Origin: an uncultured archaeon
Lineage (GTDB): Archaea > Nanobdellota > Nanobdellia > Pacearchaeales > GW2011-AR1
Reading direction: 5' to 3'
Length of the DNA: 64,000 nt
Assembly: GCA_902385625.1 (NCBI GenBank)
Contig: CABMGE010000027.1
Span: 16,161 to 80,160 of the forward strand
A program made the translations under genes and the position numbers. Of this stretch, positions 14,774 through 57,970 are shown one piece after another (the first letter of the stretch is position 1; each line of letters opens with the position of its first letter). The notes beneath the pieces are model-generated. The model searched no databases and was not told the DNA's origin. It worked only from the letters and a program-made list of their open reading frames with translations.

Positions 14774-16477
14774 ATGGTTAGCACTGATTACAAAATATTA
14801 AAAGAAATAATATTAATCTTATTTTTTTCTATATTTATTATAGCAGTATCAGAAGTTTCTGCAGTACAAACATTTAGCATAGTCGCAAATACAGGTTCAG
14901 GGGGAAATATTACTCCAGCAGGAACAACAATAGTAAACTCCGGGGACAATCAAATCTATACAATAACTCCTAATTCATATTTTTATGTCTTAAATGTATT
15001 TGTAGATAATTTTTCTATAGGGCCGATTCAAAATTATACATTTGCACATGTTTCAGCAAATCACACAATTTCAGCAACATTCACAAATTATCCTACAATG
15101 ACATTCAAATACATTAATTCATCAGCAAGTCAGGGAGGAACAATTTCTCCTCTTGGAACCATATCATTTACTCCAATAATGAAAAATCAAGCATATACAA
15201 TAACTCCTGATCCAGGATTTGGAATTGCAAATGTCTTAGTGGACGGCGTTTCTAAAGGAGCACTATCAACCTATTCATTTACTAACTTTTCAGGAGACCA
15301 TGAAATATATGCTATGTTTGGATCTCCCCCTACAACAAGTGATGATTTTAATGAAAAAAAACAAGCCATATGCCAAAAAACAAATCAAACAATAACCCTA
15401 AGTGAACAATGTGGAACCTCTGGATGCAACTGGACAAAATATTGCTTAGAAAAGAATTGTAATCCTGCAAATGGAACTATCTATAATGGGCCTGTAACAA
15501 TTGGAGAAGGAAAAACCTATTTCAGATATCAAACTAAATCAAATTCAGGCATAATGCAAAACATTACTGAAAGGATCTTTGTAATCGATCCAACTTGTTT
15601 TTCAAATCCAAGCATGAGTGTTAATACTGCAACAGAGAATGAAATAAATGATACAGATTATTATATTAGTTTTAATCCAACACTTAATGGAACAATACAA
15701 ATGTCAGTTAGAAAAACTAAATCAGAACCTGATTTAAATCCGAATTCAGGAGTCACTTCTTTAGGAAAATATCTTGAAATTATTGCACCGCAATTAGTTG
15801 GAAACATTTCAAATGCAACAATAAAAATAATGTTCTCTAATGATGAAATTTCTGCAGCAGGAATAGAAAAATCAACTTTAAAATTATGGTTCTATAATCT
15901 AGCAACATCAAGTTGGCAAGTAATAGACTCCCTGAGTGGAGGAATTAATGAAACAGACAACTATGTCTGGGCAAACACAAATCACTTTTCAATCTGGGGA
16001 ATATTTGGAAGCACCCCTGCTCCTCCAGAAAATCCTCCTGCACCTTCAGGAAGTGGTGGGGGAAGCGGAGGTGGTGGTGGAGGCGGTGGAGGAAGTAGCA
16101 TAAGCTGTACAACTAATTGGAAATGCACTGAATGGAGTCCATGTATAGAAAGCAGACAAACGCGAAGTTGTTCAAAAGCAAATGAACATTGTTCAGTTAG
16201 TGAAAGTAAACCAATTGAAAGCCAAGAATGTATTGTAAAACTTGCTTCAAATTATACAAAAAATGATTATGCAGAGAATATTACACAAATCCCTGCAAAC
16301 TTAAGTGATTCAAATACTAGTTCAGGAATTTCAGGAATAACAGGAGCAGTTATTGGTGCAGTTAACAAAAACAAAAAAGCAATAATGGGAATTGTAATTA
16401 CCTTAATAATTATTATAGTAGCCTCATTAATCTCATTTAGAGAAAGAAAAACATCTAAAAAACATATTAAAAAATAA
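14774..16477 (+). CDS. Multidomain cell-surface protein (two InlB-B/Flg_new-like repeats, PGF-pre-PGF-like domain, Cys-rich TSP1-like motif, C-terminal TM)
   Basis: Signal peptide; two GG.I.P.G...YTITP...V.VD...YxF...H.I.A.F repeats; VWANTNHFSIW; Gly linker; CTTNWKCTEWSPC; TM followed by basic tail. Confidence 0.75.
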   Translation: MVSTDYKILKEIILILFFSIFIIAVSEVSAVQTFSIVANTGSGGNITPAGTTIVNSGDNQIYTITPNSYFYVLNVFVDNFSIGPIQNYTFAHVSANHTISATFTNYPTMTFKYINSSASQGGTISPLGTISFTPIMKNQAYTITPDPGFGIANVLVDGVSKGALSTYSFTNFSGDHEIYAMFGSPPTTSDDFNEKKQAICQKTNQTITLSEQCGTSGCNWTKYCLEKNCNPANGTIYNGPVTIGEGKTYFRYQTKSNSGIMQNITERIFVIDPTCFSNPSMSVNTATENEINDTDYYISFNPTLNGTIQMSVRKTKSEPDLNPNSGVTSLGKYLEIIAPQLVGNISNATIKIMFSNDEISAAGIEKSTLKLWFYNLATSSWQVIDSLSGGINETDNYVWANTNHFSIWGIFGSTPAPPENPPAPSGSGGGSGGGGGGGGGSSISCTTNWKCTEWSPCIESRQTRSCSKANEHCSVSESKPIESQECIVKLASNYTKNDYAENITQIPANLSDSNTSSGISGITGAVIGAVNKNKKAIMGIVITLIIIIVASLISFRERKTSKKHIKK

Positions 16478-33739: not shown

Positions 33740-35440
33740 ATGAAAGAAAGAAACCTCGCAATAACTATAACTTTAATTTTAGCAATACTTGGAATAATTC
33801 TAGGAGTTTTATTTTCATCAGGAATCTTGTTTTCAAATAATTTTACAAATAGTTATTATGAGTTTAATTTTTACAAATCAGACTTAAAAATAAATGGAAC
33901 TCATGTAGAAGAAAAACTTTACTATACTCCTGATAAAAATTACCATACATTATTTAGAAATTTCGAGTCATTAATAACACCTAAAGGAGATTATTCTGTT
34001 AAAAACTCAGTTATTATAAATTCAGTAAATTGTGGGGCAGGAAATCCCTACTATAAGATATCAGGTTCCTGCTATACAATGCCTGATTTTCAAACACAAA
34101 ATTCTTGTAAGCCTTATACTGAAAATAATGAATATGGTTGTACATTTGGAGATACTCTGGGTTTTGAAGAAGGAAATAACTTTTGGATTTCTTCAGAGTT
34201 CACATTAAACCCAGATAATCTTTTTAAAATAAATGGAAAATACTACATTAAATTTATAGCATACGGAAGAAATAAGCACAAAACATTAACAACAGAGGAT
34301 AATCTTAGAATCACAGGTAATGCAGTTTATACAAATAAATACCTTTCAAAAGAATATGTTATAATCTATATACCTTATGAAGGGGAAATAAATAATTTTA
34401 ACATAATTGAAAAACCGAATTTTGAATATGACTCAATTCCCAAGAAAAAGCAAAGCATGATTATTATCATAATAACCAGCATATTCTTTATTCTACTGCA
34501 TCTAATTCCATCAGTATTATTCTTCTGTTCCTGGTACTTTTTTGGAAAGGAATTAACAGAAGAAGATGTTCCAAGTCAACTAAGCCAGAGCCCAACTGAC
34601 AGAAAACCCTGGGAAGTAGCCAGCTTTTTTAATCCCCCTTTTGGAAGAATAGACTCAAATTTCTTTTCAACAATGCTCTTTGATTTTTATAGAAGAAAAA
34701 TTATTGATTTAAAACTTGTTAAAAAATTTTTTGGAAACAATCTATTAATCAAAATAAATGAAAATAAGGCAACAAATTTAGATAACATAGAAAAAGAATT
34801 CCTAATAATTCTTAAAAAATTAAAAGAATCATGCCCTAAAAAAGAAGTAAGTAATGATTATTTTAACCTAAACAAATCATTAAGTTCATATAAAACAAAA
34901 TTGGAAATGAGTTCTATTTATCAGACTTTTCAAAAAAGCATTGATGAAGAATCAAAAAAATATCTTGAGAAAAAAGGACTTCCTTTTTTTATGATTTCAA
35001 GTTTGATTCTATGTTTTATTTCTTTTTTCACAGTTATAACCATATTCTTTTTATCATTTATATCAATATTTATAGTAATTATTTTGTCTGTTGGAAGTTC
35101 TCTTCTGATAAAATACAAAAAAGATTTTTATATAGAATATCAAAAATGGCAATCATTCAAAAAATGGCTTAAAGGTTCTCCTGCAATGAGGGAAAGTAAG
35201 TTTAAAGGAGTGGTATTATGGGAGAAATATTTGGTTTATGGAACAGCTCTCGGAGTGTCAAAACAGGTTTTAAAAGAATTAAAAAATGAAGGAATAATAG
35301 ACGATAGAAGATATAATTTTTATTCAGGAGTCTATGTAGCATCAAATTCATTTGCAACTTCCTCAGGTGGAGGCCATGGCGGAGGATTTGGAGGAGCAGG
35401 CGGAGGAGGAGTTGGCGGTGGTGGCGGTGGCGGAAGATAA
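33740..35440 (+). CDS. DUF2207-like membrane protein
   Basis: Extracellular N-domain, TMs, WQSFKKWL, LWEKYLVYGTALGV, Gly-rich C-terminal tail. Confidence 0.8.
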   Translation: MKERNLAITITLILAILGIILGVLFSSGILFSNNFTNSYYEFNFYKSDLKINGTHVEEKLYYTPDKNYHTLFRNFESLITPKGDYSVKNSVIINSVNCGAGNPYYKISGSCYTMPDFQTQNSCKPYTENNEYGCTFGDTLGFEEGNNFWISSEFTLNPDNLFKINGKYYIKFIAYGRNKHKTLTTEDNLRITGNAVYTNKYLSKEYVIIYIPYEGEINNFNIIEKPNFEYDSIPKKKQSMIIIIITSIFFILLHLIPSVLFFCSWYFFGKELTEEDVPSQLSQSPTDRKPWEVASFFNPPFGRIDSNFFSTMLFDFYRRKIIDLKLVKKFFGNNLLIKINENKATNLDNIEKEFLIILKKLKESCPKKEVSNDYFNLNKSLSSYKTKLEMSSIYQTFQKSIDEESKKYLEKKGLPFFMISSLILCFISFFTVITIFFLSFISIFIVIILSVGSSLLIKYKKDFYIEYQKWQSFKKWLKGSPAMRESKFKGVVLWEKYLVYGTALGVSKQVLKELKNEGIIDDRRYNFYSGVYVASNSFATSSGGGHGGGFGGAGGGGVGGGGGGGR

Positions 35441-35500: not shown

Positions 35501-35896
35501 TTACAATCCATCAATAATTCCCTTAAGATTATAAGAAGTTATATAATTTTTATCTATATCATTTATTGATCCAGGGTTGCGCTTTAAAAAATTATCAGGA
35601 CAAAGTACAAGTCGTTCCGGAGTATAATTAAGCTTTTTATATTTCTCTCCAGAGATTAAATGATCTCCCTCTGAATTTTCTTTAAATCTAACTCCAAATA
35701 AAGTAGGAGGATTATTTGAAATAAGAAAACCAACTAACTTTTCACCAACTATAACTCTTCCTTTAGTATTTTTGTCTCCAGAAAGAACATTCGTAATTAA
35801 AACACTATCAACAAGCTGTGAAAGATCAGAATAATCACGAATAGGTTGTATTTCACTTCTTCCTAAATTAAGCCTATAAGTCTCAACAGTTGACAT
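35501..35896 (-). CDS. Hypothetical protein (last gene of 8-gene operon)
   Basis: 131-aa ORF; AGGAG Shine-Dalgarno; 8 bp from the upstream gene. Confidence 0.65.
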   Translation of the reverse strand: MSTVETYRLNLGRSEIQPIRDYSDLSQLVDSVLITNVLSGDKNTKGRVIVGEKLVGFLISNNPPTLFGVRFKENSEGDHLISGEKYKKLNYTPERLVLCPDNFLKRNPGSINDIDKNYITSYNLKGIIDGL

Positions 35897-35904
35897 TTTT
35901 ACTC

Positions 35905-36738
35905 CTATTCATTTTTTATATGAAGTCCTGAAACATAAATTAATGCTTCTTTACTCATATAATCAGTGAGTAGTCTCATTTGTATTAATTTCTCTGTATT
36001 TAACCATTCACTTGCTTTGCTAATATTCTGCTTGTTATACATATCAAAACCAAGTTCATCAAATCTCTTGAAAAGTTTAGAAAGTTTTTCAGTATTTTCA
36101 TGAAAATTATTTGCATTTTCTTTTCTCTCATTCTCATAGAGTTTCATAAATAGTGAAGAATAACCGCCAATATTTAATCTATTTAAATCAAAACCAAGGG
36201 ATTTTAGAGAATTTAAATTATTTTCAGAATGTTGAAATAATCTTTGTGCAGAACTTATACTGTCATCTTTATTGTTGTCATAAATATTTGCTGCAAAATT
36301 AAGATAAGAATCATTAGAAAATACATAAACCCTGTTATCAGGAGTATTATGATACTGATTTAAGGGTTTTCCAAAATTAGAATTAAGAGTCAAGCTATCT
36401 CTAACTAAACCTTTTTCTAAATTACCAACATTTGTTAAATGGCCAAGTAAATTTGAAAAAAGTTTAAGTTTATTATTGGAAATGGCATTTTTATAAAAAA
36501 CAGAATAATAAACAGGACTGTCCACAGGATAGTTGGGAAAAACAACTGCATCTAAAACATTTGCAATCGGAAGAAGATCTTCAATTTTTACTGCATGCAT
36601 GTCTTTTTTAGAAAGTCCTTCAAGATACTCTAAAAAACCTGCATCTTCTTCAAATCTTCCAAGTCTTTCTCGAAGTTTTTCATTTTTGTCTTTAGATAAA
36701 AATAATTCAAGTCCCTGGCAAGTTTGTTCCAGATTCAT
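35905..36738 (-). CDS. Hypothetical protein
   Basis: 277-aa ORF; ATGA overlap with upstream gene; GGAGG Shine-Dalgarno. Confidence 0.7.
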   Translation of the reverse strand: MNLEQTCQGLELFLSKDKNEKLRERLGRFEEDAGFLEYLEGLSKKDMHAVKIEDLLPIANVLDAVVFPNYPVDSPVYYSVFYKNAISNNKLKLFSNLLGHLTNVGNLEKGLVRDSLTLNSNFGKPLNQYHNTPDNRVYVFSNDSYLNFAANIYDNNKDDSISSAQRLFQHSENNLNSLKSLGFDLNRLNIGGYSSLFMKLYENERKENANNFHENTEKLSKLFKRFDELGFDMYNKQNISKASEWLNTEKLIQMRLLTDYMSKEALIYVSGLHIKNE

Positions 36739-38591
36739 TGTTCCTCCACCTCTCTAATTTCTTCAAGTCTTTCAGAAATAGACTTTTCATGTTTTCTATT
36801 TCTTAAATATCCAATTCCTTTTTTTCCTCCGTAATATATCCCAAATCCAGCTCCAGCATAAATCATAAGCCATGGAAGTAAACCAAGCTGTATTCTTTCT
36901 CGAAGTAATGGAGAAGACTTAAATTGATCTTTAAATTCATCAGAAATTCCATATTCTCTTGCCAAATCTTCCGCATAAGGTCTTCCTGTTGTTGTAAGTA
37001 TTCTTATAATATCATGTTTTGCAGCAAGAGTTGATTCCTGGGTTAGTGCTCTGCTTAAATTCTGGATATTTAAATCTTCAAATAACATAATATCACTTCT
37101 CTGATCATTAATAAGCCCTAAAAGTGAATGCTTTCCATTTCCGCGATGAACCTGGTCAGGAATCATATTTTCTATTGCAGCACAAAGCCTGAATAATTTT
37201 TTCCCCTGGTTAGTATCTTTTGAAGGAGACATAAATGAATAATTTATAGTAAATGTAGTATCTTGATCAAGCCTTGAGTCTCCAGATAACTGCTCGATTT
37301 CCATTCTTTCATCATGAGTTGTTCTGCAAACAACACTCCCGATTAGTTCTTTATTTTTATCTATTTTCCCATCTCCATTTAAATCAAGATAATAAGAATA
37401 TAAAATATCTTGGCCATATCTTAAAACAAAGTCACCAATTGTAATTTTTGCTATATCTCCAAATTTATCTCTGAGTGTATATCCGCCGTTGTTGTATTTA
37501 TCAAAAGGATAAAGAGTATCGTCTCCACTTCCAAAACTAAATTCACTAAGACCAGGATATCTTCCAGGCCATAAATCCCACTGATTATCTATTCTAAGCC
37601 TTTTTTCGTCTCTTGATCCTATCCAATAATGAAGTGCTCTTTTAAAAAAACCAGGATTCTCTCCAAGATAAACAGTGCCACCCTGAGGCAATATTTTCAA
37701 ATATCCATCTTCAAAAGTAGAATAAATTGTTTTCTTACTCATTTTCTCTTCAATAGCACGAATCTCATTAACAAGATCTTCTCTTTCTTTTCCACCAGTT
37801 GCTTCAGAACTGTCTATTTTCCTTATTTTATCTAAAAGTTCTTTTGCAAGTTGATTATTATTCGGATCTTTTCCATAATCTTCAAGTGAGGTTCCAGATC
37901 TAAAAGTTTCTTTTCCAAAAAACCAGCCTAAAGGAATAGTTCTTCTTTCAACAAGTCTGTTTATAACTTCCCGAGTTTTATCAGGATGATCAATTACATC
38001 AATGTCTATTTCAGTAAGTCCCCTTTCAGGAGCAGTTTTATAAACAACATAATTTTGCGGAGATTTTGAATTAGAACCTAAAACAACCTCTGCAAACTGT
38101 TCTCGAAAATTCAAGCTTCCACCAATTCTAAGTCCAGCCTGAAATTTCTCAGGTTTTTGAGTTGATGATGCAATTCTTATTTTTTGGGAATTATCAAGAT
38201 TATAGTAATCGATATCTCCTCTTCTCTCTCTTGTTGCTTCAAATAAATAAGTTCCAACTTTACTTTCAACTCCTCCACCAGCATAAAATTTTGTAACAGA
38301 CTCTCTGTCTGCCCTTGTACCAGTACTTTTATCTTTATTTCCTGCAACATAAGTAACATTAGAAGATCTGTATAAAACATTTCTTTCAGGATAATTTTGT
38401 CTTTTTGTAAGAAAATCTTTTGTTAAATAAAGACTAGCTGCTCCACCAATTAAAGCAACAGCTGCTCCTGCATAAGCTGCCCTTTTCAAATATTTTTTTG
38501 CATTGCTCCATCTACCTTCAGGTCTTTCCTCAAGAGGTTTTTCTCTGTTTGCTTTTATTTTTGCGAGTCTATCGCTAATGCTTTCTTCCAT
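36735..38591 (-). CDS. Two-TM membrane protein with large extracytoplasmic domain and DxNGDG Ca2+-binding-like motif
   Basis: TMs near both ends; DLNGDGKID; AGGAG Shine-Dalgarno. Confidence 0.7.
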   Translation of the reverse strand: MEESISDRLAKIKANREKPLEERPEGRWSNAKKYLKRAAYAGAAVALIGGAASLYLTKDFLTKRQNYPERNVLYRSSNVTYVAGNKDKSTGTRADRESVTKFYAGGGVESKVGTYLFEATRERRGDIDYYNLDNSQKIRIASSTQKPEKFQAGLRIGGSLNFREQFAEVVLGSNSKSPQNYVVYKTAPERGLTEIDIDVIDHPDKTREVINRLVERRTIPLGWFFGKETFRSGTSLEDYGKDPNNNQLAKELLDKIRKIDSSEATGGKEREDLVNEIRAIEEKMSKKTIYSTFEDGYLKILPQGGTVYLGENPGFFKRALHYWIGSRDEKRLRIDNQWDLWPGRYPGLSEFSFGSGDDTLYPFDKYNNGGYTLRDKFGDIAKITIGDFVLRYGQDILYSYYLDLNGDGKIDKNKELIGSVVCRTTHDERMEIEQLSGDSRLDQDTTFTINYSFMSPSKDTNQGKKLFRLCAAIENMIPDQVHRGNGKHSLLGLINDQRSDIMLFEDLNIQNLSRALTQESTLAAKHDIIRILTTTGRPYAEDLAREYGISDEFKDQFKSSPLLRERIQLGLLPWLMIYAGAGFGIYYGGKKGIGYLRNRKHEKSISERLEEIREVEEQ

Positions 38592-38611
38592 TTTGTATTT
38601 TAAGCTCCTTG

Positions 38612-39475
38612 TTAATATTTGTCGTATTTACTTCTAAGATCTGCTCTTTCTTTATCTCGTGCATCTTTCTCAGCTTGTATTCTTGATTGTCTTCTTTTTC
38701 TTAATGCATCAACAGCAGAACTAAAAGTATTTCCAACACTTTCAACAGCATCAGCTATTTTCTCTCCATAGTTATTCACAGGTTTAGCTTCAGAATCAGA
38801 TTTAATATCTGTACCATCAGCGCAAACATTTGCTTCTATAACTTCAGGAGTTATTTCTATTTTAGCAGTAGGGGAATAATTTCTTATGATCTCAAGCAAC
38901 TTTCCATCAGCAGTTAACTCTTTTGCCATTTTATCAAGATCTTTTTCATCTCTTGATCTTGTAATAACATCTTTTGCATAAACTAGTCCTCGTCCAACCT
39001 GAAATCCAGCCCATAAAGATGGTGCCTGATAAAATGTTTCTCCAAATGCAACAACTCCGTCTCCCTTTCCAGTTAAAAGACTTGATGCAACTACACCAAT
39101 ATCTCCTAAAAATTCAAGGCCAAACGCAGCAGTTAATTTTCCTCTCCATGAAAGATTGTTTATTCTTTCATCTTCTTTATATGATTCAACAGTATCTTTA
39201 ACTCTTGCATAAAAAGACTGAGTTTTTGGTTCAGAAGATATTCCGTTTCTTGTAAAATAATCTCTTGCTTTCATAACTGAATCACAGAATCTTTCTTCAG
39301 ATGAATTAGATTCAACTGAATTATTTGCAATATATTCAAGTGCTTCAACTTCTGCAAGTTTATCTTTTACTCTCTGTTCAGTATATCTTGCTGCATTTCT
39401 AGAGAACAATCTATCTCCAATTGTAATAGAAACTCCTGCAAGAAAATGTGCAGACGCTTCATTATACCATGTCAT
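38612..39475 (-). CDS. Hypothetical membrane-associated protein with charged C-terminal coiled coil
   Basis: Gly-rich moderately hydrophobic segments; GGAGG Shine-Dalgarno; 1 bp from upstream stop. Confidence 0.7.
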   Translation of the reverse strand: MTWYNEASAHFLAGVSITIGDRLFSRNAARYTEQRVKDKLAEVEALEYIANNSVESNSSEERFCDSVMKARDYFTRNGISSEPKTQSFYARVKDTVESYKEDERINNLSWRGKLTAAFGLEFLGDIGVVASSLLTGKGDGVVAFGETFYQAPSLWAGFQVGRGLVYAKDVITRSRDEKDLDKMAKELTADGKLLEIIRNYSPTAKIEITPEVIEANVCADGTDIKSDSEAKPVNNYGEKIADAVESVGNTFSSAVDALRKRRQSRIQAEKDARDKERADLRSKYDKY

Positions 39476-39476
39476 T

Positions 39477-40781
39477 TTACTTAATACCTCCTTTCAAGGA
39501 ACTTAAAACTTGAGAGCAAACATATCTTTGTCTGTTAAGTGGAAACCCTGGAAAATCAACTCTGAATTTTCTTGGATTTGATTCATAAACTCTTGTTACA
39601 TCACTGGAATCAAGTTCCGCAAGCATATGATTAACTATTTCAGGCTTTCCAAAAGGCTTTTTTGTGGCAACAGAAAGTTTTAATTTTGTTTCAGGAGTTG
39701 TATGTTTTACTGCATCTTCAATTTCAGTGCTGGTATTATCCATAAGGCCTGCAATGTTTCTAAGTTCTCTCCAGCATTCAGGAAGTTTTCCAGAGTGTTC
39801 AATTACTTTCCTTTTCTTTTCATAAGGAGGAAGACTAACAACATCAATACCTTCTTCTAGTAAAACTTCATTTTCAATTTCAGAAATTCTCTGTTCAATT
39901 AATCCAGAGTCATATTTCAAAAATTTATATCTATGTAATGTTTTAAGCAAATCTTTATCATGAAGGTCAAGGCCAATTACTTCTTCTCCAAGATCCCTGA
40001 CTTCTCCCTGATGGTGAAAAACATAAATAGCATTTAAGTCATCATCATTTTTGAAATTTCTAAGGCTATGGATTCCTCTAAAAAATTCAACATAAAAACA
40101 ATGAACTTCTCTTTTGATTGGAAAAATATCTGAAATATTTCTAAGATCTACATTTCCAACTTTTCCAACAAGACCCCTCATTTGGGAAATATATTCCTCA
40201 TTTAATGCATTATCAGTTCCAAAACTGTTTTTTTCTCCAAGTCTATCAGACATTTCCTTAAGTTGCCCCATTAATTGTCCTGCTCCATCAAGACTATCAA
40301 GGCTTATTTTAACTGTTCGAAGTTGCATTAAATCATAAGGTGATTGAAAAACAGTTATTCCATTATCAAGTTCTCCAAATAAAGCATCTGACTGGGTTAA
40401 ATCTTCAATAGTATGTCTTGCCTGACGATAAACCTCATCATATAATCCCTCTTCATAAGAAGTTTGAGGTGCAATTAATGGAGCATCTTTTTGATCAGGA
40501 GACAAAACAATCATATATCTATTTGCAGATTTTATATTAAGATAATTTTCTCCAAATTCAAGCCTGTCTTGATATTTTCTTTTTAAATGATCACATACTT
40601 CAGGAGAAAGTCCTCTTTTATCAACTCTAAATGAATCAAGTTCACTTTCAAAACCAAAAACTTTTGAAAGAACTGCATTATATCTTTGAGCAAGTTCTCC
40701 ATCTACATGAAAAAGTCCTTGATTAATAAGTCCAAGCTTTTCAAGATCAATATCCCTTTCAGGAATAATTATGTCAGTCAT
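39477..40781 (-). CDS. DUF6638-like protein
   Basis: RYN..L, FRVDKRGLSPEV, NYLN....NRY.I.LSPDQ..APLI resemble the DUF6638 N-terminus as I recall it; ATGA overlap with the ATPase. Confidence 0.65.
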   Translation of the reverse strand: MTDIIIPERDIDLEKLGLINQGLFHVDGELAQRYNAVLSKVFGFESELDSFRVDKRGLSPEVCDHLKRKYQDRLEFGENYLNIKSANRYMIVLSPDQKDAPLIAPQTSYEEGLYDEVYRQARHTIEDLTQSDALFGELDNGITVFQSPYDLMQLRTVKISLDSLDGAGQLMGQLKEMSDRLGEKNSFGTDNALNEEYISQMRGLVGKVGNVDLRNISDIFPIKREVHCFYVEFFRGIHSLRNFKNDDDLNAIYVFHHQGEVRDLGEEVIGLDLHDKDLLKTLHRYKFLKYDSGLIEQRISEIENEVLLEEGIDVVSLPPYEKKRKVIEHSGKLPECWRELRNIAGLMDNTSTEIEDAVKHTTPETKLKLSVATKKPFGKPEIVNHMLAELDSSDVTRVYESNPRKFRVDFPGFPLNRQRYVCSQVLSSLKGGIK

Positions 40782-42628
40782 TGTGAAGTTCCTCCATTAG
40801 TGGATCCAAATCTTTTTACTACCTCTTGTCTGACTTTCAAACTATGCAATTCTTTTGCAACATCACTTTCAAATTTATCAGAAGCATATTTTTGTTGTGT
40901 TTCATATGCTCTTTCAAGTTCTTCTGCAATAATTTCTCCAGTTATTTTTACGCAGAGTCCCTCAAGCATTTTTACTCTGTCAGAATATTCTTTATTAAAG
41001 AAAACATCTGGATTTGTATACCAATCTTCTGGAATTTCATAATCATTAATTCTTTTTTTAACAGCATCTGAAACAGCATCAATGGGCCTTCCTGTAAATC
41101 TTGGATTTTTTTGCTTGAATTCATGACAAAGTTGTCCTAAATCCTGGAGTGTCATTCCACCCTTGAATTTATTCTTTAGCCCTTCAAAAAATCCTGTTTC
41201 TTTTACAACAGTTCCTGTTTCTCCCTTTCTCATCTCATAAGGCTTATAATCTTTTCCAGGACCAACTTGAATTATTCCTTTTTTTATCCAAGATCCAAGT
41301 TTGTCTGAAATTATATCTGAATAATCATACCATTCTTGAGGTCCATCCACTTCATATTGTGCAGTATATCTTTGAAGAAGTGCAGGATCAATAGAAGTTG
41401 GTGCATTTGTAGCAGACCACCATTGTATGCTTCCTTGTTTTCTAAGTGTTACATCAGTTCCAGCAAGTGCCTGCATAAGTACATTTAAAATATCTTTATC
41501 AGCACCACCGCTATTTGAATCTCTGTCTCCTGAAAACATAAGGTCTATATCATCGATTAGTACAATATTAAGTCTATCTGCTCTTCTTGTTTGTTCGACA
41601 ATTGCATTAACTCTTTCTGCAGTTTCTCCATAATACTTGCTTTTAACCTTAGGATCAATTGCTAAAAATTCATAAGTTAAATTTCCTTGATTTTTCTTTT
41701 TCCAAAATTCACTTAACTGTTCACATCTTTGTGCAAGTCTGGTTCTTCCCATTGAAAATAAAGTTGACTTTCCAGTTCCAGGAAGTCCATAATAAAGAAC
41801 ACTCCAAGATAACCCTCCAACTTCTATAATTGGATTTTTCTTGGCAATTAAATCATAAAGAGCAATCCTATCCATATCTCGAAGCATTTCTTTTTTAGCG
41901 AGTACATTTCCTGCAATTTGATGTGGAAGAACAGGAATAAAATCAGGTCCTTTTGATTTTGCTTTTTCTTCATGGCTTGCTTCAAACCCACTTATTGTGT
42001 ATTTATCTGCAATAACAAAATTAGTGTCTTTAACAAGATCAACTAACCTTGAATTAAATATTGGTTTTTTTGAGAGTGCATTGTCCCCAAGTTTTTTAAA
42101 AAAATCATAAGATGCTTTTGGGAAATCAATTCCTTTTTCAAATACTTCTTTTCTTTTTCCCATATTTACAAGTCCATGATACCAGGATAAAACTGAATTC
42201 AAAACTTCGTCTTTTCTCAAATCAAATTTAAAATCCATAGGAGTTGTAAATGGAATTGGCTCTTGTCCTTCAAGCATTAAGCCAAGCCTATTAGTTGTAA
42301 GTGAACTTGCAGCAAACATTGAGTATGCTCCAAGAAATGATCTTTTTTCAGCATCAGTAACTCCGGAATTTATTTCCTTTGCTCGATCTTCAAGAATTGC
42401 ATACATTTCATAATAAAGTGAAAGACCTTCGCGAACAGCTTCCATAGTGTCTACTACTTCTTTTGCCATTAATTTTTCATTACTAGTCCCAATTCCCTTT
42501 AAAAGTTCAGTCAAATCAAGAATATCAGTTCCACCTTTATCGATCATAGACATTTTCTGATCTACTTTTGCTAAGTGTTGTTCAAGACTTTTCTTTGTTA
42601 TTTTAATGGCTGCACCAACTTCTGGCAT
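40778..42628 (-). CDS. AAA+ ATPase (classic AAA clade) with long N-terminal helical domain
   Basis: GLPGTGKS, SKYYGET pore loop, LIDDID, SATN, IDPALLQR; start at MPEVG (42628) behind AGGAGG. Confidence 0.88.
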   Translation of the reverse strand: MPEVGAAIKITKKSLEQHLAKVDQKMSMIDKGGTDILDLTELLKGIGTSNEKLMAKEVVDTMEAVREGLSLYYEMYAILEDRAKEINSGVTDAEKRSFLGAYSMFAASSLTTNRLGLMLEGQEPIPFTTPMDFKFDLRKDEVLNSVLSWYHGLVNMGKRKEVFEKGIDFPKASYDFFKKLGDNALSKKPIFNSRLVDLVKDTNFVIADKYTISGFEASHEEKAKSKGPDFIPVLPHQIAGNVLAKKEMLRDMDRIALYDLIAKKNPIIEVGGLSWSVLYYGLPGTGKSTLFSMGRTRLAQRCEQLSEFWKKKNQGNLTYEFLAIDPKVKSKYYGETAERVNAIVEQTRRADRLNIVLIDDIDLMFSGDRDSNSGGADKDILNVLMQALAGTDVTLRKQGSIQWWSATNAPTSIDPALLQRYTAQYEVDGPQEWYDYSDIISDKLGSWIKKGIIQVGPGKDYKPYEMRKGETGTVVKETGFFEGLKNKFKGGMTLQDLGQLCHEFKQKNPRFTGRPIDAVSDAVKKRINDYEIPEDWYTNPDVFFNKEYSDRVKMLEGLCVKITGEIIAEELERAYETQQKYASDKFESDVAKELHSLKVRQEVVKRFGSTNGGTSQ

Positions 42629-42633
42629 TTTAT

Positions 42634-43722
42634 TTAGACAATGTCTCCTCCTTTTGTAATTCCATAAACTCTGCAAGAATTTCCATATTCATCATTATTT
42701 CCAAGTTCTTGCTTTAGTCTAAACGGAACAATCATTTTTGTTTCAGAGTCTACTGGCCCAAAAACTTCTCTTTCAGTTTTTTTCTTTGAAATTATATTGA
42801 TTAGCCTGTCAAAAAGAGTGTTTCCACCATATTGCCTTACTCTTTCGCTCATAACTCTTTCAATTGTAAATTTTAAAACAGATGGCTCTTCAACTCCGTA
42901 GAGTAATTGATTCATCTCAGGACTATTTTCAGTTAGAGAATTATAAAATGGCCCAATAGTATATTTTTCTAGAAGTTTTGGATGAACTTCCTCTATTTCA
43001 TTGTCGATATGTCTTGCAAATGCACCTATATCAAAAAATCCAAAATGAGTCTGGTAAATTATTGTTTCCAGTTGTTTATTGGATTTTTCTTCAAGAGGCT
43101 CGAATCTTTTGTTTTGAGTTAGATACATTCTGTATAAAACAGGAACTTTTGAAGTCCTTTCAATACAACTCCATTCAAGAGTATACATTCTTCTTCCATT
43201 CTGTTCTTTTGCAAGTTTCGGTTCATTTAAATGAAATTCATTAAGTAAGTTTGTTTTGTCAATCATCGAATAAAAATTAAATCTCTTAAGCAGAGTTTGG
43301 GAATTTACTACAGAATCATTTCTAAGTATTGCATTTCTTATGCTGTTTACTATTCCATCTCTTGAAGGAAGGCAATTTAAAACTTCTCCAGATTCAGATT
43401 TATTTCTCTCAAGCATATATAAGTCTTTTTCAGTGGGAAATCCAGAGTTCCTGCATGCAATTGTAAGTGCAAAGTCAACTCTATCCTGACCCTGTAACTG
43501 ATATTTGAGTTTCAAAGCCTCAATACTATTTTTAACAACTTCAATATAAGGGATAACAAATTCTCCTCCTTCATTTCCCTCAAGAGTAAGAATCTGGGAT
43601 AAATGTCCAAGCCGGGTATTAAGTCTATCAAGATAAAGCGCAGCATCAGAATCATCTATAACTTTTAATTCAGGTTCAGAGGATAACCTGTTCACTAGCT
43701 CAGGAGTTTTTGTTATTTCCAT
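42634..43722 (-). CDS. Hypothetical protein of the AAA/DUF6638 operon
   Basis: 362-aa ORF with SGFP and HPK....IGPFY motifs; tight spacing to neighbours. Confidence 0.7.
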   Translation of the reverse strand: MEITKTPELVNRLSSEPELKVIDDSDAALYLDRLNTRLGHLSQILTLEGNEGGEFVIPYIEVVKNSIEALKLKYQLQGQDRVDFALTIACRNSGFPTEKDLYMLERNKSESGEVLNCLPSRDGIVNSIRNAILRNDSVVNSQTLLKRFNFYSMIDKTNLLNEFHLNEPKLAKEQNGRRMYTLEWSCIERTSKVPVLYRMYLTQNKRFEPLEEKSNKQLETIIYQTHFGFFDIGAFARHIDNEIEEVHPKLLEKYTIGPFYNSLTENSPEMNQLLYGVEEPSVLKFTIERVMSERVRQYGGNTLFDRLINIISKKKTEREVFGPVDSETKMIVPFRLKQELGNNDEYGNSCRVYGITKGGDIV

Positions 43723-43740
43723 CTTAGAATAAGATAATAT

Positions 43741-44874
43741 TTAATTTGCTGAAGGAACTGGCGCAGCAGCTTCAGGCGAATCGTATTTCTTTTCAAGGGC
43801 TGCAATTCTTGTATCATAATCAGCTCTCATTCTTTTCTGAGCTTCTCTATATGCAGCTAGTTTATCGGCTTCAATTAGAGGTCTTTCAGCTCTCTGTGCA
43901 GTTTCATCGAGGATTCCAGCAGCAGAAGCAAGAACAGCCTGAGTTGATTTATCTGTAGCGAATTTCATTCCCTTATCATATTGTGAAGCAGCTTTCATGC
44001 TAAGTGCAGTTTTAATTGCAGTAGGTGTTGCAAGATAAAGTTCAGTAACATGATTTATATTTTCTTCAAGTCTTGTCTTGAATTGTATAAGTGAGTCAAC
44101 TATGTCCTGGTAAGCCTTAAGATGAGTTTTTTGTATTGGTAAAGCTTGCTTTGCAGTGTCAACAATAGCAAAATAATAATTTGTTTTCTTTTGAGCTTCT
44201 GCAAACTGTGAATCAAGTGCAGCTTTCTTTTCAGCAAGTTGAGCATATTCAGTTCCAGTCGCAGCATCCATTTTATCCTGAAGATCTTTAACTTGTCTTT
44301 CAAGTCCTTCTTTTTCAGCAAGTCTTTGTTCATACAAAGGTTGATTTTCTTTAAGCTTTGTAGTTGTAATCTTTACAGTTGCATCTATTCTCTTTGTTTT
44401 TTCTAAATTTTCAACAGTAGCTCCATATAATTTTTGAACCATGAAATTACCATAGTCAAGTATAGTTTGTAATTGAAGGTTTACATCAGCATTATCAATT
44501 CTTTTTCTTACCATTTTATCAGCACTTCTTGTACTGATTTTTGAAACCCATTTTTCAAGTCCTTGATACTGACAAGTACTTCCGAAGAATTGTCCTAAAT
44601 CATTTAATTCTAAGTATAAGCTTTGAGCAAGATCAGTTATCTCGCCCTTGAATTTTTTTCCTCTTTCAATTCCTTGATCTAGTTTTGAGAGTTCCTTAAC
44701 ATCCACAGCTTTGTTTCCTGAAAGCATGTCTTGTAGTGTAGATTCATATTGAGAAAGAGCTTGTCTGTCAGATTCTTCTATTTCAATTTGTTTTTTGTCT
44801 AGTTCTCGGAGCTTCTGTTTTTGTCCAGAGTCAATTTCTAGTTGCTCAAAAATGTCGATTGATTTTTGTGCCAT
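43741..44874 (-). CDS. Long coiled-coil protein, possibly TelA/toxic-anion-resistance-like
   Basis: All-helical heptad pattern, no TM; first gene of the operon; TelA assignment is inference. Confidence 0.55.
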   Translation of the reverse strand: MAQKSIDIFEQLEIDSGQKQKLRELDKKQIEIEESDRQALSQYESTLQDMLSGNKAVDVKELSKLDQGIERGKKFKGEITDLAQSLYLELNDLGQFFGSTCQYQGLEKWVSKISTRSADKMVRKRIDNADVNLQLQTILDYGNFMVQKLYGATVENLEKTKRIDATVKITTTKLKENQPLYEQRLAEKEGLERQVKDLQDKMDAATGTEYAQLAEKKAALDSQFAEAQKKTNYYFAIVDTAKQALPIQKTHLKAYQDIVDSLIQFKTRLEENINHVTELYLATPTAIKTALSMKAASQYDKGMKFATDKSTQAVLASAAGILDETAQRAERPLIEADKLAAYREAQKRMRADYDTRIAALEKKYDSPEAAAPVPSAN

Positions 44875-45047: not shown

Positions 45048-45311
45048 CTATTTTAAAACTCTATAACCTACAATTTCTTTTCCCTTGTATATCGGAACTT
45101 CCTTTCCAAGTTTTGTCTTATTTGTACTGTTGCTCATTACAAGAATTATTCCAACTCCAACAATAATAACCCCTCCAATAAGAATATATTTTGAAAAAGT
45201 TGAAGGAATACTGGATAAAATAGGAGCTGAGGACATTATTTTAGGAGTAGATATGGCTATTGCACCAAGACCTGCGAGTGATATTAAATATCCAAAAACT
45301 TTTGCATTCAT
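45048..45311 (-). CDS. Small two-TM membrane protein
   Basis: Two hydrophobic segments and C-terminal EVPIYKGKEIVGYR; GAGGG Shine-Dalgarno before ATG 45311. Confidence 0.72.
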   Translation of the reverse strand: MNAKVFGYLISLAGLGAIAISTPKIMSSAPILSSIPSTFSKYILIGGVIIVGVGIILVMSNSTNKTKLGKEVPIYKGKEIVGYRVLK

Positions 45312-45442
45312 TTTTCCCTCTTTATTATAATTAACCTGACGATTAATATATTTAAATATGTTTTGATTTTTATCCTCTCCCCAGAATTTTAAAAACATCC
45401 AAAAAACAATTAGTTTAAAAATAATCTTTCATTGAATTATTT

Positions 45443-48696: not shown

Positions 48697-49344
48697 ATGG
48701 TATCAACACCCCTAAAATTCGCTGGAAAAGGAGTTGCATATATTGTTCTAACAGCAGCAGGCGTAGTTGTTGAAAAATATGCCTCAAAAAAGCTAGAAGA
48801 ATTTAATCAATATGCAACTGAGCATGGAGGATATGAAAAAGTTGCAAAAAACAATATCCGTGCAGTAGAAATAAAAACCCGAAGAGCAGCGCATCATGCA
48901 AAAAGATGCTTGGATGAAACACTTGAACCAGTTATAGATGAAGTAAAAAAGACAGGAAAAGAGGTTCATGAAAGCTTTTCAAATGTATTATATGGATATA
49001 TTCCAAGAAAAGAAGAATTAGAATCAGGCGGAAAATATGAAGGAGTTGGAACTAATTTTAAAGGACCTATTTTAACAAGATCTCGCTGTGAAAGTTGCTT
49101 AGAGTTCCTTAGTCACGCAAATGAAACAATTCCTGAAGATCAACCTCTCAAGCAAACAGTTGTAAATGATATAAGAAGAAGTGCAAGTAATAACACAAAA
49201 GAGCTAGAAGGATTTTATCAAGATGTATTTTCCTGGCAATTTTCAGATATTAATAAAATAAGAGCACTAATGGACTGTGTTGATCTGGCAAATGATTATT
49301 TAAAAGAACCTGCATCAACATTATCTGGAGAAAAATATTCTTAG
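48697..49344 (+). CDS. Hypothetical protein
   Basis: 215-aa ORF; AGGAG Shine-Dalgarno. Confidence 0.65.
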   Translation: MVSTPLKFAGKGVAYIVLTAAGVVVEKYASKKLEEFNQYATEHGGYEKVAKNNIRAVEIKTRRAAHHAKRCLDETLEPVIDEVKKTGKEVHESFSNVLYGYIPRKEELESGGKYEGVGTNFKGPILTRSRCESCLEFLSHANETIPEDQPLKQTVVNDIRRSASNNTKELEGFYQDVFSWQFSDINKIRALMDCVDLANDYLKEPASTLSGEKYS

Positions 49345-54457: not shown

Positions 54458-54910
54458 TTATTGATTCCCCTTGGAATTATTTAAGGGTTTTGGTTCATAA
54501 GGAACTGTTTCAAGAATAGAACTAATTTTATCTACAAGATCTGGATCTCTTGAATTTTTATCAGTATGAAAAACTTGAAATCCATAACTCCCAAGACTCA
54601 GTATATCTCCATTCTCAATTATAGTTCCAAGTGAAGACTCAACTCTCTCGCCATTAACATAAGTTCCATTTTTGCTACCATTATCAACAACATAAGGCTG
54701 GGAACTATCAACATAAATAGTACAATGATTTCTAGAAACATAAGATAAAAATCTATCTGCATAATCAGAGTCCTGATCAATTGTTTCTTCTTCAGCGCCG
54801 ATTACAAGGTCTGCTGATTTGCCTCTACCAACTGTAACATTTCCAACTTCAGGAATTTCAATAACCTTTTCAGGATTTTCTCTTATTAAATCTACAAGAT
54901 AAATTTTCAT
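54458..54910 (-). CDS. FHA domain protein
   Basis: VGRG, VSRNHC, SKNGTYVNG and GD.L.LG motifs. Confidence 0.92.
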   Translation of the reverse strand: MKIYLVDLIRENPEKVIEIPEVGNVTVGRGKSADLVIGAEEETIDQDSDYADRFLSYVSRNHCTIYVDSSQPYVVDNGSKNGTYVNGERVESSLGTIIENGDILSLGSYGFQVFHTDKNSRDPDLVDKISSILETVPYEPKPLNNSKGNQ

Positions 54911-55326
54911 TTTACCCTCGAATCCTCAAAAGCATTTGATAAAATACCCTTAAGACCTGAAAAAATATTATCAGATTCTTGTTTAACTACAACATCAAAA
55001 TCGTAATGATCCTTTTCTGTAAGACCAAGTCCTAAAACATCTCCGTTTCCTAAAACAACTCCTTCTCCATTAATTTTTCTCCCATTAACATATGTGCCAT
55101 TAGTACTAGTGTCATAAGCAAATAATCTGGAATTAATAACTGCAACCACTACATGATTTCTAGAAAGATTACTATCAAGTAAAGGAATACAAGTCCTAAC
55201 TTCTAGTCTTTTACGAGTTGAACCAGGATTTCTTCCAATAACAAGTTCATCACCATCTTGAACAAGTTCAGAATATTTCTTTCCATTAGCCCTATCTTTT
55301 AACATAAAATGAATGTATTTTGCCAT
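54907..55326 (-). CDS. FHA domain protein
   Basis: IGRN, LSRNHV, STNGTYVNG and GDVLGLG motifs. Confidence 0.92.
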   Translation of the reverse strand: MAKYIHFMLKDRANGKKYSELVQDGDELVIGRNPGSTRKRLEVRTCIPLLDSNLSRNHVVVAVINSRLFAYDTSTNGTYVNGRKINGEGVVLGNGDVLGLGLTEKDHYDFDVVVKQESDNIFSGLKGILSNAFEDSRVK

Positions 55327-55483: not shown

Positions 55484-57970
55484 ATGAATACATCAGTTAA
55501 CTTCATTCCAATTGATTATGATTATTTTGACTTTAATGGTAAAACTTACGCAAAAATAACAGGCAGAACAGATACAGGTAAAAAAACAGTCATAATTGAT
55601 TCTTGCGATATCTATTTTTGGGCTGTTTTAAAAGAAAAAATTCCTGATAAAAAAATAAAGCAAATACAGGAAAAAATAGAAAAAATAAAAGTGGAAAAAG
55701 AAAACAGAACGTCTTACGTTATAAAAACAGAAGTCCATAATAAAAATTTTCTTGGAAAAGAAGTAAAAGCAATAAAAATATTTGTAACAAATCTAAAAGA
55801 CGCTCATGCAATTGCAGATCAAATGGGATTTAAAGAAATTGATAAAAGAAGGGAATATGACCTTAACTTTATTACAAAATACATTCTTGAAAGAAAATTA
55901 AAGCCCCTATTAAAATACAAAGTTTCAGGAGAAATTCTTAATAATACCAATGAGTTTGGTGGAATTGACCAAATCCTTGATGCAGACTTATGCATAAAAA
56001 CCGAGAAAATAGAAGAACTAAAAGAACAAAGCAGTTTTAATCCAAAAATACTTGCTTATGATATAGAAACTGATGAATTTGAAATAGGAAAAGGACAAAT
56101 CTTAATGATTTCGCTTGTAGGAGACAAATTCCGCAAGGTTTTGACCCACAAGGTCAAAAGTTCTAAACTTCCATTTGTAGAATGTTTTAAAGATGAAGAA
56201 GAAATGTTAAGGGCATTTATTAAAAATATAAAAGAATATAGTCCGGATATTTTAACAGGTTATTTTTCTGATGAATTTGATCTTCCATATTTAAGGGCAA
56301 GAGCAGAAAAGAATAGAATTAAACTAAATATTGGGATTGATAACTCCCAGCCAATATTTTCAAGAGGTAGAATGCTCACTGGAAAAATTAAAGGAATTGT
56401 TCATATAGATATGTTAAAGTTCATAAAAACAAATTACTCCCAATATCTAAATTCTGAAACCTTATCACTAAATGATGTAGCAAGCGAACTTTTAGGAGAA
56501 AAGAAAAAAGACTGGATTCACAAACACTCATCAAAAATAAACCATGATGAATGGGAAGATTATCTAGACTACAATCTTCAGGATTCAATACTAACATACA
56601 AGCTTGCAGAAAAAGCCTGGCCAGATATGCAGGAATTTACAAGAATAATTCAAGAGCCATTATTTGACATAACAAGAGATGGTATGTCTGCACATGTTGA
56701 AAACTACATAATACATAACCTTGAAAAATATAATGAGATTATTGAAAAAAGACCAATGCATGATGAAATAGGAGAGCGAATTGAAAGGGAAAAATATGTC
56801 GGTGCATTTGTCTTTCAGCCAAAAGCAGGATTATATGAAAATATATGCTTTTTTGATTTTACATCTTACTGGCCTTCAATTATAGTTAGTTTTAATCTTT
56901 CCAGATCAACACTATTATCTAAAAAAGAAAAAGATTCACTTGAAGTAGATATTTCAGGAAAAAAAGTATACTTTTCAAAGGAGCCAGGATTTTTTCCACT
57001 AATGCTTGGAGAGATTATTGAAAAAAGAAAACAATACAAAGGAGAATATAATAAAAATCCAAATCCAATAACAAAGGCAAGGTCTAATGCATTTAAACTT
57101 CTTGCAAATGCAAGCTATGGTTATCAAGGATTTTTCGGGGCAAGATATTATTGCCCAGAAGCCTCTGCATCAGCAACTGCAATATCAAGAGATTTTACAA
57201 AAAAAACAATTGATCTTATTAATACCAAGGGTTATGAAGTCATTTACAGTGATACAGACTCAATAGCATTCAAATTAAACAAGCACACGCAAAAAGAGGC
57301 TCTTGTTCTTCTTGCAGAAATAAACAAAAATCTTCCTGGAATAATGGAACTTGATTTAGAAGACTTTTATAAAAGAGGAATCTGGGTTACAAAAAGAACA
57401 GGAGATTTCGGAGCCAAAAAGAAATATGCACTTATTGATGAAAAAAACAAGCTTAAAATAAGAGGATTTGAAACAGTAAGGAGAGATTGGTGCGAACTTG
57501 CAAGAGTTACTCAAAATATAGTTTTAGACCATATTTTAAAAGAAGGCAATGAAAAAAAAGCTCTCGAGTATACAAAAGAAATAATAAAAAAATTAAAAGA
57601 AAGAAAAATTCCATTGCAGGAACTAATAATAAAAACCCAGTTAAAAAAACCAATTGAAGAATATAAGTCAGAAAGTCCGCATGTTACAGTTGCAAAGAGA
57701 ATGAAAGAACTTGGAATGCCTGTAGACATTGGAATGTTAATGCAGTATTTTATTTGTGAACCTGAAGCAAAAAATAAAACAAAAGCAGGAAAAACAAAGG
57801 GACCAATAAGGGAAAGAGCAAGACTCGCAAGCGAACCTTGTGAATATGACCTTGAATATTATCTTAAAAATCAAATATTACCTGCAGTTGAAAATATCTT
57901 CGAAGTTTTCAAGATTAATACAAAAGAGCTCCTTGATGGAAAAAAGCAGATGAAATTAGGGGATTTTTAA
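55484..57970 (+). CDS. polB: Family B DNA polymerase
   Basis: Exonuclease motifs YDIET, FDLPYL, YNLQD; polymerase motifs DFTSYWPSII, KLLANASYGY, YSDTDS, KKKYA; PIP-like QMKLGDF. Confidence 0.97.
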   Translation: MNTSVNFIPIDYDYFDFNGKTYAKITGRTDTGKKTVIIDSCDIYFWAVLKEKIPDKKIKQIQEKIEKIKVEKENRTSYVIKTEVHNKNFLGKEVKAIKIFVTNLKDAHAIADQMGFKEIDKRREYDLNFITKYILERKLKPLLKYKVSGEILNNTNEFGGIDQILDADLCIKTEKIEELKEQSSFNPKILAYDIETDEFEIGKGQILMISLVGDKFRKVLTHKVKSSKLPFVECFKDEEEMLRAFIKNIKEYSPDILTGYFSDEFDLPYLRARAEKNRIKLNIGIDNSQPIFSRGRMLTGKIKGIVHIDMLKFIKTNYSQYLNSETLSLNDVASELLGEKKKDWIHKHSSKINHDEWEDYLDYNLQDSILTYKLAEKAWPDMQEFTRIIQEPLFDITRDGMSAHVENYIIHNLEKYNEIIEKRPMHDEIGERIEREKYVGAFVFQPKAGLYENICFFDFTSYWPSIIVSFNLSRSTLLSKKEKDSLEVDISGKKVYFSKEPGFFPLMLGEIIEKRKQYKGEYNKNPNPITKARSNAFKLLANASYGYQGFFGARYYCPEASASATAISRDFTKKTIDLINTKGYEVIYSDTDSIAFKLNKHTQKEALVLLAEINKNLPGIMELDLEDFYKRGIWVTKRTGDFGAKKKYALIDEKNKLKIRGFETVRRDWCELARVTQNIVLDHILKEGNEKKALEYTKEIIKKLKERKIPLQELIIKTQLKKPIEEYKSESPHVTVAKRMKELGMPVDIGMLMQYFICEPEAKNKTKAGKTKGPIRERARLASEPCEYDLEYYLKNQILPAVENIFEVFKINTKELLDGKKQMKLGDF

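Follow-up and report, generated by a model that had tools for sequence, protein, structure and literature searches.

A 64,000-nucleotide stretch of DNA from an uncultured archaeon of the Pacearchaeales (Nanobdellota), taken from positions 16,161 to 80,160 of the forward strand of contig CABMGE010000027.1 (assembly GCA_902385625.1) and referred to in its entirety as the window, carries at positions 35501-44874 eight open reading frames (ORFs) that lie on the minus strand and are all read in one direction. These genes, designated g1 to g8 from first to last, include a conserved operon for which the literature searched offers no described function. The conserved unit is a four-gene core, g1-g4, which encodes an all-helical protein, a multidomain protein, an ATPase of the AAA type and a protein of the Pfam family DUF6638, and which is accompanied by lineage-specific membrane partners. 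The genes and linked features, in window coordinates, are as follows.

43741-44874, minus strand: g1, all-helical coiled-coil protein of 377 amino acids (aa), first gene of the four-gene core
42634-43722, minus strand: g2, 362 aa, modelled with a helical bundle followed by a possible T-fold-like domain and, at the C-terminus, a small beta domain
40778-42628, minus strand: g3, classical-clade AAA ATPase of 616 aa when read from ATG
39477-40781, minus strand: g4, DUF6638 protein of 434 aa
38612-39475, minus strand: g5, Gly-rich protein of 287 aa, found in the DPANN form only
36735-38591, minus strand: g6, 618 aa with two hydrophobic segments, found in the DPANN form only
35905-36738, minus strand: g7, accessory protein of 277 aa
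35501-35896, minus strand: g8, accessory protein of 131 aa
44875-45047, minus strand: AT-rich spacer of 173 nucleotides (nt) 5′ of g1, putative promoter region read from the sequence
48697-49344, plus strand: cluster 6 protein of 215 aa, member of a linked family, 3.8 kb upstream of the operon in the window

The junctions from g1 through g8 measure 18, 5, -4, 1, 20, -4 and 8 nt, both negative values being ATGA overlaps. An earlier, preliminary description of this stretch, made from the sequence by eye, had reported eight co-oriented genes with gaps of at most 20 nt or ATGA overlaps behind an AT-rich region, and both the spacing and the 173-nt spacer upstream of g1 bear it out. The last gene, g8, is convergent with a DUF2207 gene, and the g3 frame can be extended to a TTG at 42676, which would yield 632 aa. 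Only two of the eight proteins are named by Pfam, namely g3 (AAA) and g4 (DUF6638); the other six fall below threshold, and no Pfam family was found for g1, g7 or g8 when the window proteins were searched.

Conservation in DPANN archaea and bacteria

To compare the operon between genomes, 8 loci were drawn from named DPANN genomes and a further 26 from metagenome contigs, and were examined by tblastn with the window proteins and by all-against-all clustering of their ORFs. A search with g4 yielded 60 homologs, all 60 of which carry PF20343 (DUF6638), and those that are named belong to Pacearchaeota, Woesearchaeota, Nanoarchaeia or Nanoarchaeota. Of the 21 DPANN loci, besides the window, that span 12 kb or more, 19 keep the order g1-g2-g3-g4-g5-g6. 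The first exception, L018, ends inside g2 at the end of its contig; the second, L016, has neither g1 nor g2 and retains g3 as a truncated, 299-aa ATPase remnant (L016:9109-10008). Because g1-g6 recur in the same order at related loci, this order is far from chance, and the synteny without which the proposed operon would have failed is present. The copy in L016 is decayed, as is that in L007, in which g2 contains an in-frame stop (L007:7048-8091).

The composition of the unit at its 3′ end is more variable. Homologs of g7 stand directly after g6 in only five other loci (L004, L007, L013, L016, L017), and a g8 homolog occurs in only one (L010, 52% identity); both genes are therefore accessory. 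A further family, cluster 6, whose members are about 215-260 aa long, is present at 16 loci including the window. Its gene directly follows g6 in seven of these (L002, L003, L011, L019, L022, L023, L024), follows g7 in three (L004, L013, L016), directly precedes g1 in four (L010, L017, L027, L031) and takes other positions in L021 and in the window, where it lies on the strand opposite to the operon. The cluster 6 protein has no Pfam family; conserved motifs within it read IPxxEELxxKYAGIG, CLxF and DIKASAS. The DPANN unit is thus made up of a six-gene core, two accessory genes and one further linked family. Of the eight-gene unit proposed in the preliminary description, g1-g6 stand as conserved, g7 and g8 prove to be accessory, and the link to cluster 6 had been overlooked.

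The four-gene core extends well beyond the DPANN archaea. A tblastn search of a plasmid collection with g4 matched 10 large replicons, distributed over Sinorhizobium (4), Vibrio (4), Shinella (1) and Rhizobium (1), and in all four bacterial loci examined, from V. vulnificus, S. meliloti, Shinella sp. and R. leguminosarum, the counterparts of g1-g4 are contiguous and in the archaeal order. With g2, g3 and g4 of the window as queries, tblastn gives matches in these loci at E values from 1e-10 to 3e-46, and a g1 profile aligns with the first gene of the bacterial clusters at hhalign probabilities of 97.7% and 95.7%. The proteobacterial clusters are, in short, true homologs of g1-g4 in identical order, and the core spans DPANN archaea and the Alpha- and Gammaproteobacteria. 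In V. vulnificus the four genes are annotated as hypothetical (359 aa), hypothetical (371 aa), ATP-binding protein (634 aa) and DUF6638 (412 aa). Clusters of this type, hypothetical, hypothetical, ATP-binding and DUF6638 with or without DUF2333, are themselves uncharacterised. The mention, in the preliminary description, of bacterial neighbourhoods lacking an assigned function is borne out: the core is present at four of four loci and matches no characterised system.

What differs between the two domains of life is the company that the core keeps. The proteobacterial clusters have no g5, g6, g7, g8 or cluster 6 gene, and tblastn found no match to g5 in the bacterial loci. A DUF2333 gene follows the core in two of the four, both of them rhizobial forms, and in S. 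meliloti two hydrophobic segments lie in the N-terminal part of its product. A relationship between this protein and g6 was considered and ruled out (hhalign probability 2%). In S. meliloti a thymidine kinase gene is followed by the four core genes, interrupted by an insertion sequence (IS) element, then by the DUF2333 gene and a formate-tetrahydrofolate ligase gene; the inserted segment, between the ATPase and DUF6638 genes (L037:6997-8742), consists of an endonuclease-domain gene and an ISRm16 transposase.

Proteins of the core and their membrane partners

The ATPase is the member of the operon whose affiliation is clearest. A single AAA domain lies between an N-domain of about 230 aa and a C-terminal extension of some 180 aa; the protein exceeds the gathering cut-off of PF00004 (58.3 bits against 21.2, E 1.4e-15), with AAA and AAA_22 the only Pfam matches at E<=0.1. 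The nearest solved proteins by sequence are Afg2, Cdc48/p97, VAT and PAN, which align over residues ~335-442 at E values of 3e-13 to 1e-7, and for this reason the classical-clade assignment made at the outset holds. NCBIfam gives partial matches to CDC48, PAN and FtsH that lie far below their cut-offs (for CDC48, 37 bits against 803). The AAA domain thus finds its best sequence matches in Cdc48/VAT, Afg2 and PAN, with the pore loop, sensor-1 and second region of homology (SRH) all aligning; g3 departs from them in having only one AAA domain, a different N-domain, the ~180-aa C-terminal extension, and no proteasome or ubiquitin-like context around it.

The motifs SKYYGET, ATN and DPAL quoted in the preliminary description are indeed present in the g3 translation and align to Afg2/Cdc48. 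Across 22 DPANN orthologs the Walker A sequence GLPGTGKS is invariant, as are K329 and Y333 of the pore loop, with G334 nearly so, in alignment with KYLGET of Afg2. Sensor-1 N408 and SRH R420, the latter one of the two usual arginines, are likewise invariant and align with ATNRP..DPAL of Afg2. The intact pore loop argues for substrate threading. At Walker B, all 22 orthologs read DDID (D360 and D362 invariant) where Afg2 has DEID, so that the catalytic glutamate of the hhhhDE consensus is absent from g3 and the replacement of Glu by Asp is family-wide. Both bacterial copies inspected share the DD of Walker B and the tyrosine of the pore loop: their Walker A sequences are GKPGTGKT and GMPGTGKT, their Walker B sequences DDID and DDVD, and their pore loop YQG.

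The helical protein g1 is considerably harder to place. The preliminary description had called it TelA-like, and the TelA hidden Markov model (HMM; PF05816) does not confirm this: neither the genome nor 18 g1 orthologs nor the g1 genes of two bacterial records gave a match at E<=10, although a very remote TelA relation could escape the test, as HMMER filters drop most matches above ~0.1. Scoring of 8000 candidates yielded 1215 homologs of g1 at E<=0.001; of the 120 listed, none carries a Pfam domain, that of TelA included, and those with names come from Sinorhizobium/Ensifer, Rhizobium, Agrobacterium, Shinella, Mycoplana, Mesorhizobium and metagenome-assembled genomes of Rhizobiaceae/Brucellaceae. 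A language-model feature search of the ESM Atlas with g1 ranked bacterial hypothetical proteins of ~358 aa first (0.96) and a TelA-tagged set ninth (0.93), the tag being borne by 10% of its members, and the structural neighbours of g1 in the same atlas are generic coiled coils with TM-scores of at most 0.45. TelA resembles g1 in size and in being all helical, and differs in that its family HMM does not match the g1 orthologs, so that the name is a lead as opposed to a statement of membership. TelA itself has been treated as a component that forms sub-membrane structures (PMC7824862).

The same description had likened the operon to ESCRT-III or PspA with Vps4, and this stays an analogy. In the six-frame translation of the genome, neither the PspA HMM (PF04012; its control exceeded the cut-off in 9 of 14 genomes) nor that of Snf7 (PF03357; control over the cut-off in 0 of 14, hence of little power) gave a match at E<=1, and Pfam reported neither an MIT nor a Vps4_C domain on g3 at E<=0.1. 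Profile searches with g1, g2 and g4 against PDB sequences returned nothing under E 0.05. The preliminary description had also proposed modelling the ATPase with its partners. When g1 was modelled together with residues 1-230 of g3, its N-domain, the median ipSAE came to 0.41 (runs of 0.41, 0.37 and 0.46), compared with 0.00 for the best of three controls; the runs had no less than 88% of their contacts in common, and the partners had a predicted local distance difference test (pLDDT) score of at least 82. Among 80 solved complexes, 58 attain the mark applied to such scores, as do 2 of 110 mismatched pairs, counts that apply here only roughly, as custom alignments were used. Only 7 of the 80 solved complexes reach the mark with scores of 0.60 or below, as do both passing mismatches, and a pass in this range is therefore more often wrong than right unless the pairing was likely beforehand. 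The proposed pairing of coiled coil and ATPase thus gains weak support, as far as the model goes, for docking of g1 on the g3 N-domain.

The remaining core proteins, g2 and g4, yield confident models. The identification of g4 as DUF6638-like proved right, with 90.2 bits against a cut-off of 27 over positions 7-391 of the 439 in the PF20343 model. Its AlphaFold model, built on a 145-sequence alignment (pLDDT 95.3; predicted template modelling score, pTM, 0.90), begins with an alpha/beta part, continues through a beta-rich middle and ends in a helical domain, with the conserved polar residues D54, S59, Q97, S108 and D150 all in the N-terminal part; the ESM Atlas model of the same protein (pLDDT 0.39) was too poor for use. 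Residues 13-24 (LExLGLINQGLF) are highly conserved and confidently modelled, and have no regular secondary structure. For g2, 43 sequences gave a model of pLDDT 89.2 and pTM 0.86 in which residues 24-156 form a helical bundle, 163-300 a bb(b)aabb domain and 317-355 a small beta domain. The strand and helix order of the middle domain (~163-300) is the bb-aa-bb of a T-fold, which hints at a T-fold-like domain; Foldseek with the whole g2 model returned no match at E<=0.001. At the level of whole models, g2 and g4 appear to have no clear solved relative.

The two DPANN-specific partners may bring in the membrane. For g5, described earlier as a Gly-rich membrane-associated protein, the Gly-rich character is evident and the membrane association plausible: one weak hydrophobic segment (116-134, Kyte-Doolittle value 1.54) lies within the Gly-rich region, the alignment of 22 orthologs allows a possible membrane hairpin and a basic C-terminal helix, and no consistent Pfam match was obtained. 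The earlier portrayal of g6 as a two-transmembrane surface protein is better founded. Hydropathy identifies segments at 38-56 and 567-585, both in regions that align in all 21 orthologs, and the basic residues flanking each suggest that both termini are inside and ~500 aa outside. A DLNGDGKID loop in g6 gives weak EF-hand_5 matches in 16 of the 21 orthologs. The motif R[LIM]xx[LIF][KR] occurs on the N-tail in 11 of 21 orthologs (0.38 expected from shuffles) and at the extreme C-terminus in 6 of 21 (0.44 expected), with 2 matches in 11,710 ectodomain residues; the orthologs are kin, and these counts are not independent. In the window's own g6 the motif sits on both predicted cytoplasmic tails, as RLAKIK and RLEEIR within residues 6-14 and 606-613. 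It was not found in the bacterial core proteins checked or in other window proteins. We take it to resemble MIM1 of ESCRT-III, and treat that likeness as a lead.

Distribution and chromosomal site

The operon is scarce close to home. DUF6638 was not found in any of 60 close relatives, a set with 36 members of the same genus; in a wider sample of the phylum, covering 400 other genomes from 280 genera, it turned up in 8 genomes and 8 genera. Carriers among the genomes listed are 1.1-1.7 Mb in size. At E<=0.001 the family numbers 448 cluster representatives at 50% identity.

The site itself is informative. The same-genus genome G003 has the TRM5, g0, DUF2207, MGMT and HerA genes in the window's order, with g0 and DUF2207 ~0.8 kb apart and no operon gene within the 20-kb stretch, whereas the metagenome contig L010 combines the window's flanks with the operon. 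An empty site in one and a filled site in the other make the operon a presence/absence polymorphism at a conserved position. It appears to be rare in the phylum, accessory and not essential. The argument, made in the preliminary description, that the keeping of so large a module in a reduced genome suggests a role in host contact, envelope stress or antiviral defence is weakened, since the module is rare and located in an indel site. Its composition is native (GC 0.327 against 0.308), with no sign of recent transfer.

Around the site, the immediate upstream neighbour of the operon is g0 (45048-45398, minus strand), a gene for a 116-aa protein in which two hydrophobic segments were found. Although it shares the operon's strand, g0 is a flanking gene outside the operon, given its presence both beside the empty site of G003 and in L010. 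At the opposite edge of the indel site, the DUF2207_C membrane protein (33740-35440, plus strand) ends in a C-terminal Gly run (GGGHGGGFGGAGGGGVGGGGGGGR). Elsewhere in the window, two tandem small FHA-domain genes (54458-55326, minus strand) lie beside a family B DNA polymerase gene (55484-57970).

Possible functions of the core

The explanation that we consider the best, and advance tentatively, is that the operon encodes an undescribed multi-protein, membrane-linked AAA remodelling machine. A hexamer of g3 would thread or remodel a protein substrate; g1, docked on the g3 N-domain, would be either the assembly that is remodelled or a scaffold that presents it; and g2 and g4 may act as adaptor or regulatory subunits. 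The lineage-specific membrane proteins could hold the core beneath the membrane and connect it with the cell exterior, in DPANN archaea by way of the g6 ectodomain, with its candidate calcium loop, and the conserved helical motif on the g6 tails. The likely role of such a machine would be envelope maintenance, stress response or signalling.

Systems built on comparable lines are known. Vps4/CdvC with ESCRT-III and the PspA/Vipp1 systems likewise combine a single-ring classical AAA ATPase bearing its own N-domain, a helical protein and membrane proteins. The present core differs in also including g2 and DUF6638, which have no ESCRT counterpart, and in the Walker B DD of g3; ESCRT-III proteins are about 220 aa long, compared with 377 aa for g1. 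On a broader scale, classical AAA+ ATPases have been reported beside Snf7, PspA and band-7 proteins, and roles in sub-membrane assembly proposed for them (PMC11237479); none of the pairings described in the part of that work consulted has the g1-g4 architecture. No paper naming DUF6638 or PF20343 was found in the literature searched, and DUF2333 was met in one paper, in a passing mention. A single published table entry for S. meliloti, the ChvI-bound fragment SMc02733, also came up and could not be tied to the cluster. A match to a characterised system was sought, as the preliminary description had suggested, in Pfam, PADLOC, PHROGs, NCBIfam and this literature, and none emerged; the matches in PADLOC, PHROGs and NCBIfam went no further than generic AAA ones.

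Several observations weigh against a membrane-linked remodelling machine. Only the ATPase has a characterised relative, and each functional step is consequently one that we infer. The Glu-to-Asp change in Walker B could mean slow or no hydrolysis, and hence a switch rather than a motor. The TelA and PspA HMMs are without any match, and the score of the predicted g1-g3 docking falls in the weak band. The hydrophobicity of g5 is weak. Finally, the Vibrio and R. leguminosarum loci have no recognisable adjacent membrane gene; a membrane link is therefore not universal in the neighbourhood of the core.

Among the alternatives, an anti-virus or conflict system, in which the core would sense infection and swappable membrane proteins (g5/g6 or DUF2333) would damage or seal the membrane, fares best and is still unlikely. 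The patchy spread of DUF6638 through the phylum and its absence from close relatives are what it has in its favour, together with the presence/absence pattern at a single site that is empty in G003, the variable membrane partner and accessory genes, and weak IetA and TRIP13 matches on the ATPase. The defence screens themselves point the other way. In PADLOC-DB 2.0, g2 and g4-g8 match zero families, g1 has three unrelated matches (E 0.011-0.037) and g3 only the weak TRIP13 and IetA hits (best 1.6e-6); PHROGs matches are confined to the ATPase; and a search with a DPANN DUF6638 query found no relatives on viral contigs or in a phage collection. The operon has no nuclease, protease or other usual effector domain, and its native composition gives defence no help. 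In S. meliloti the cluster sits between the thymidine kinase and formate-tetrahydrofolate ligase genes, and the rhizobial and Brucellaceae-type sources of the named g1 homologs among those listed are more in keeping with a core gene of a lineage.

A second alternative, to which we assign a slightly smaller chance, is that of a membrane-protein extractor or assembly chaperone, with the ATPase pulling on the tails of g6 (or DUF2333) and with g1, g2 and g4 as adaptors, not substrates. By sequence, the ATPase comes closest to the unfoldases Afg2, Cdc48 and PAN, FtsH ranking lower; its pore loop is intact; and g6 offers a conserved short helical motif on its N-tail that is repeated on the C-tail in some orthologs (6 of 21). 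Set against these features, conservation of the core extends to loci without g6, two of the four bacterial loci are without a recognisable membrane neighbour, the tail motif was not found in the bacterial proteins checked, and the binding prediction favoured g1, if weakly.

A more specific form of the machine, and an improbable one, would make g1-g4 an ancient, hitherto unrecognised ESCRT-like apparatus of bacteria and DPANN archaea, in which the ATPase remodels a sub-membrane polymer of g1 and the MIM-like tail motifs of g6, as a calcium-binding surface protein, wire it to events at the surface or at host contact. Very unlikely is a small-molecule pathway in which the ATPase would be under the control of a purine- or pterin-like ligand, bound or produced by g2 through its T-fold-like domain and by g4 through its alpha/beta domain, as the strand order of the g2 central domain in the model and the conserved polar residues of g4 might suggest, considering that Foldseek found no match, that the catalytic motif of any T-fold family was not identified in g2 and that no biosynthetic gene lies within the operon.

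Whichever role the putative remodelling machine may serve, its core is widespread, occurs in two domains of life and is found in tractable organisms such as Sinorhizobium meliloti. Two of its proteins, g2 and g4, have confident models and no clear solved relative. The role of a classical AAA motor with partners of this kind would, if worked out, amount to a new cellular machine, and in the DPANN archaea it could point to a surface-coupled function in host-dependent cells.

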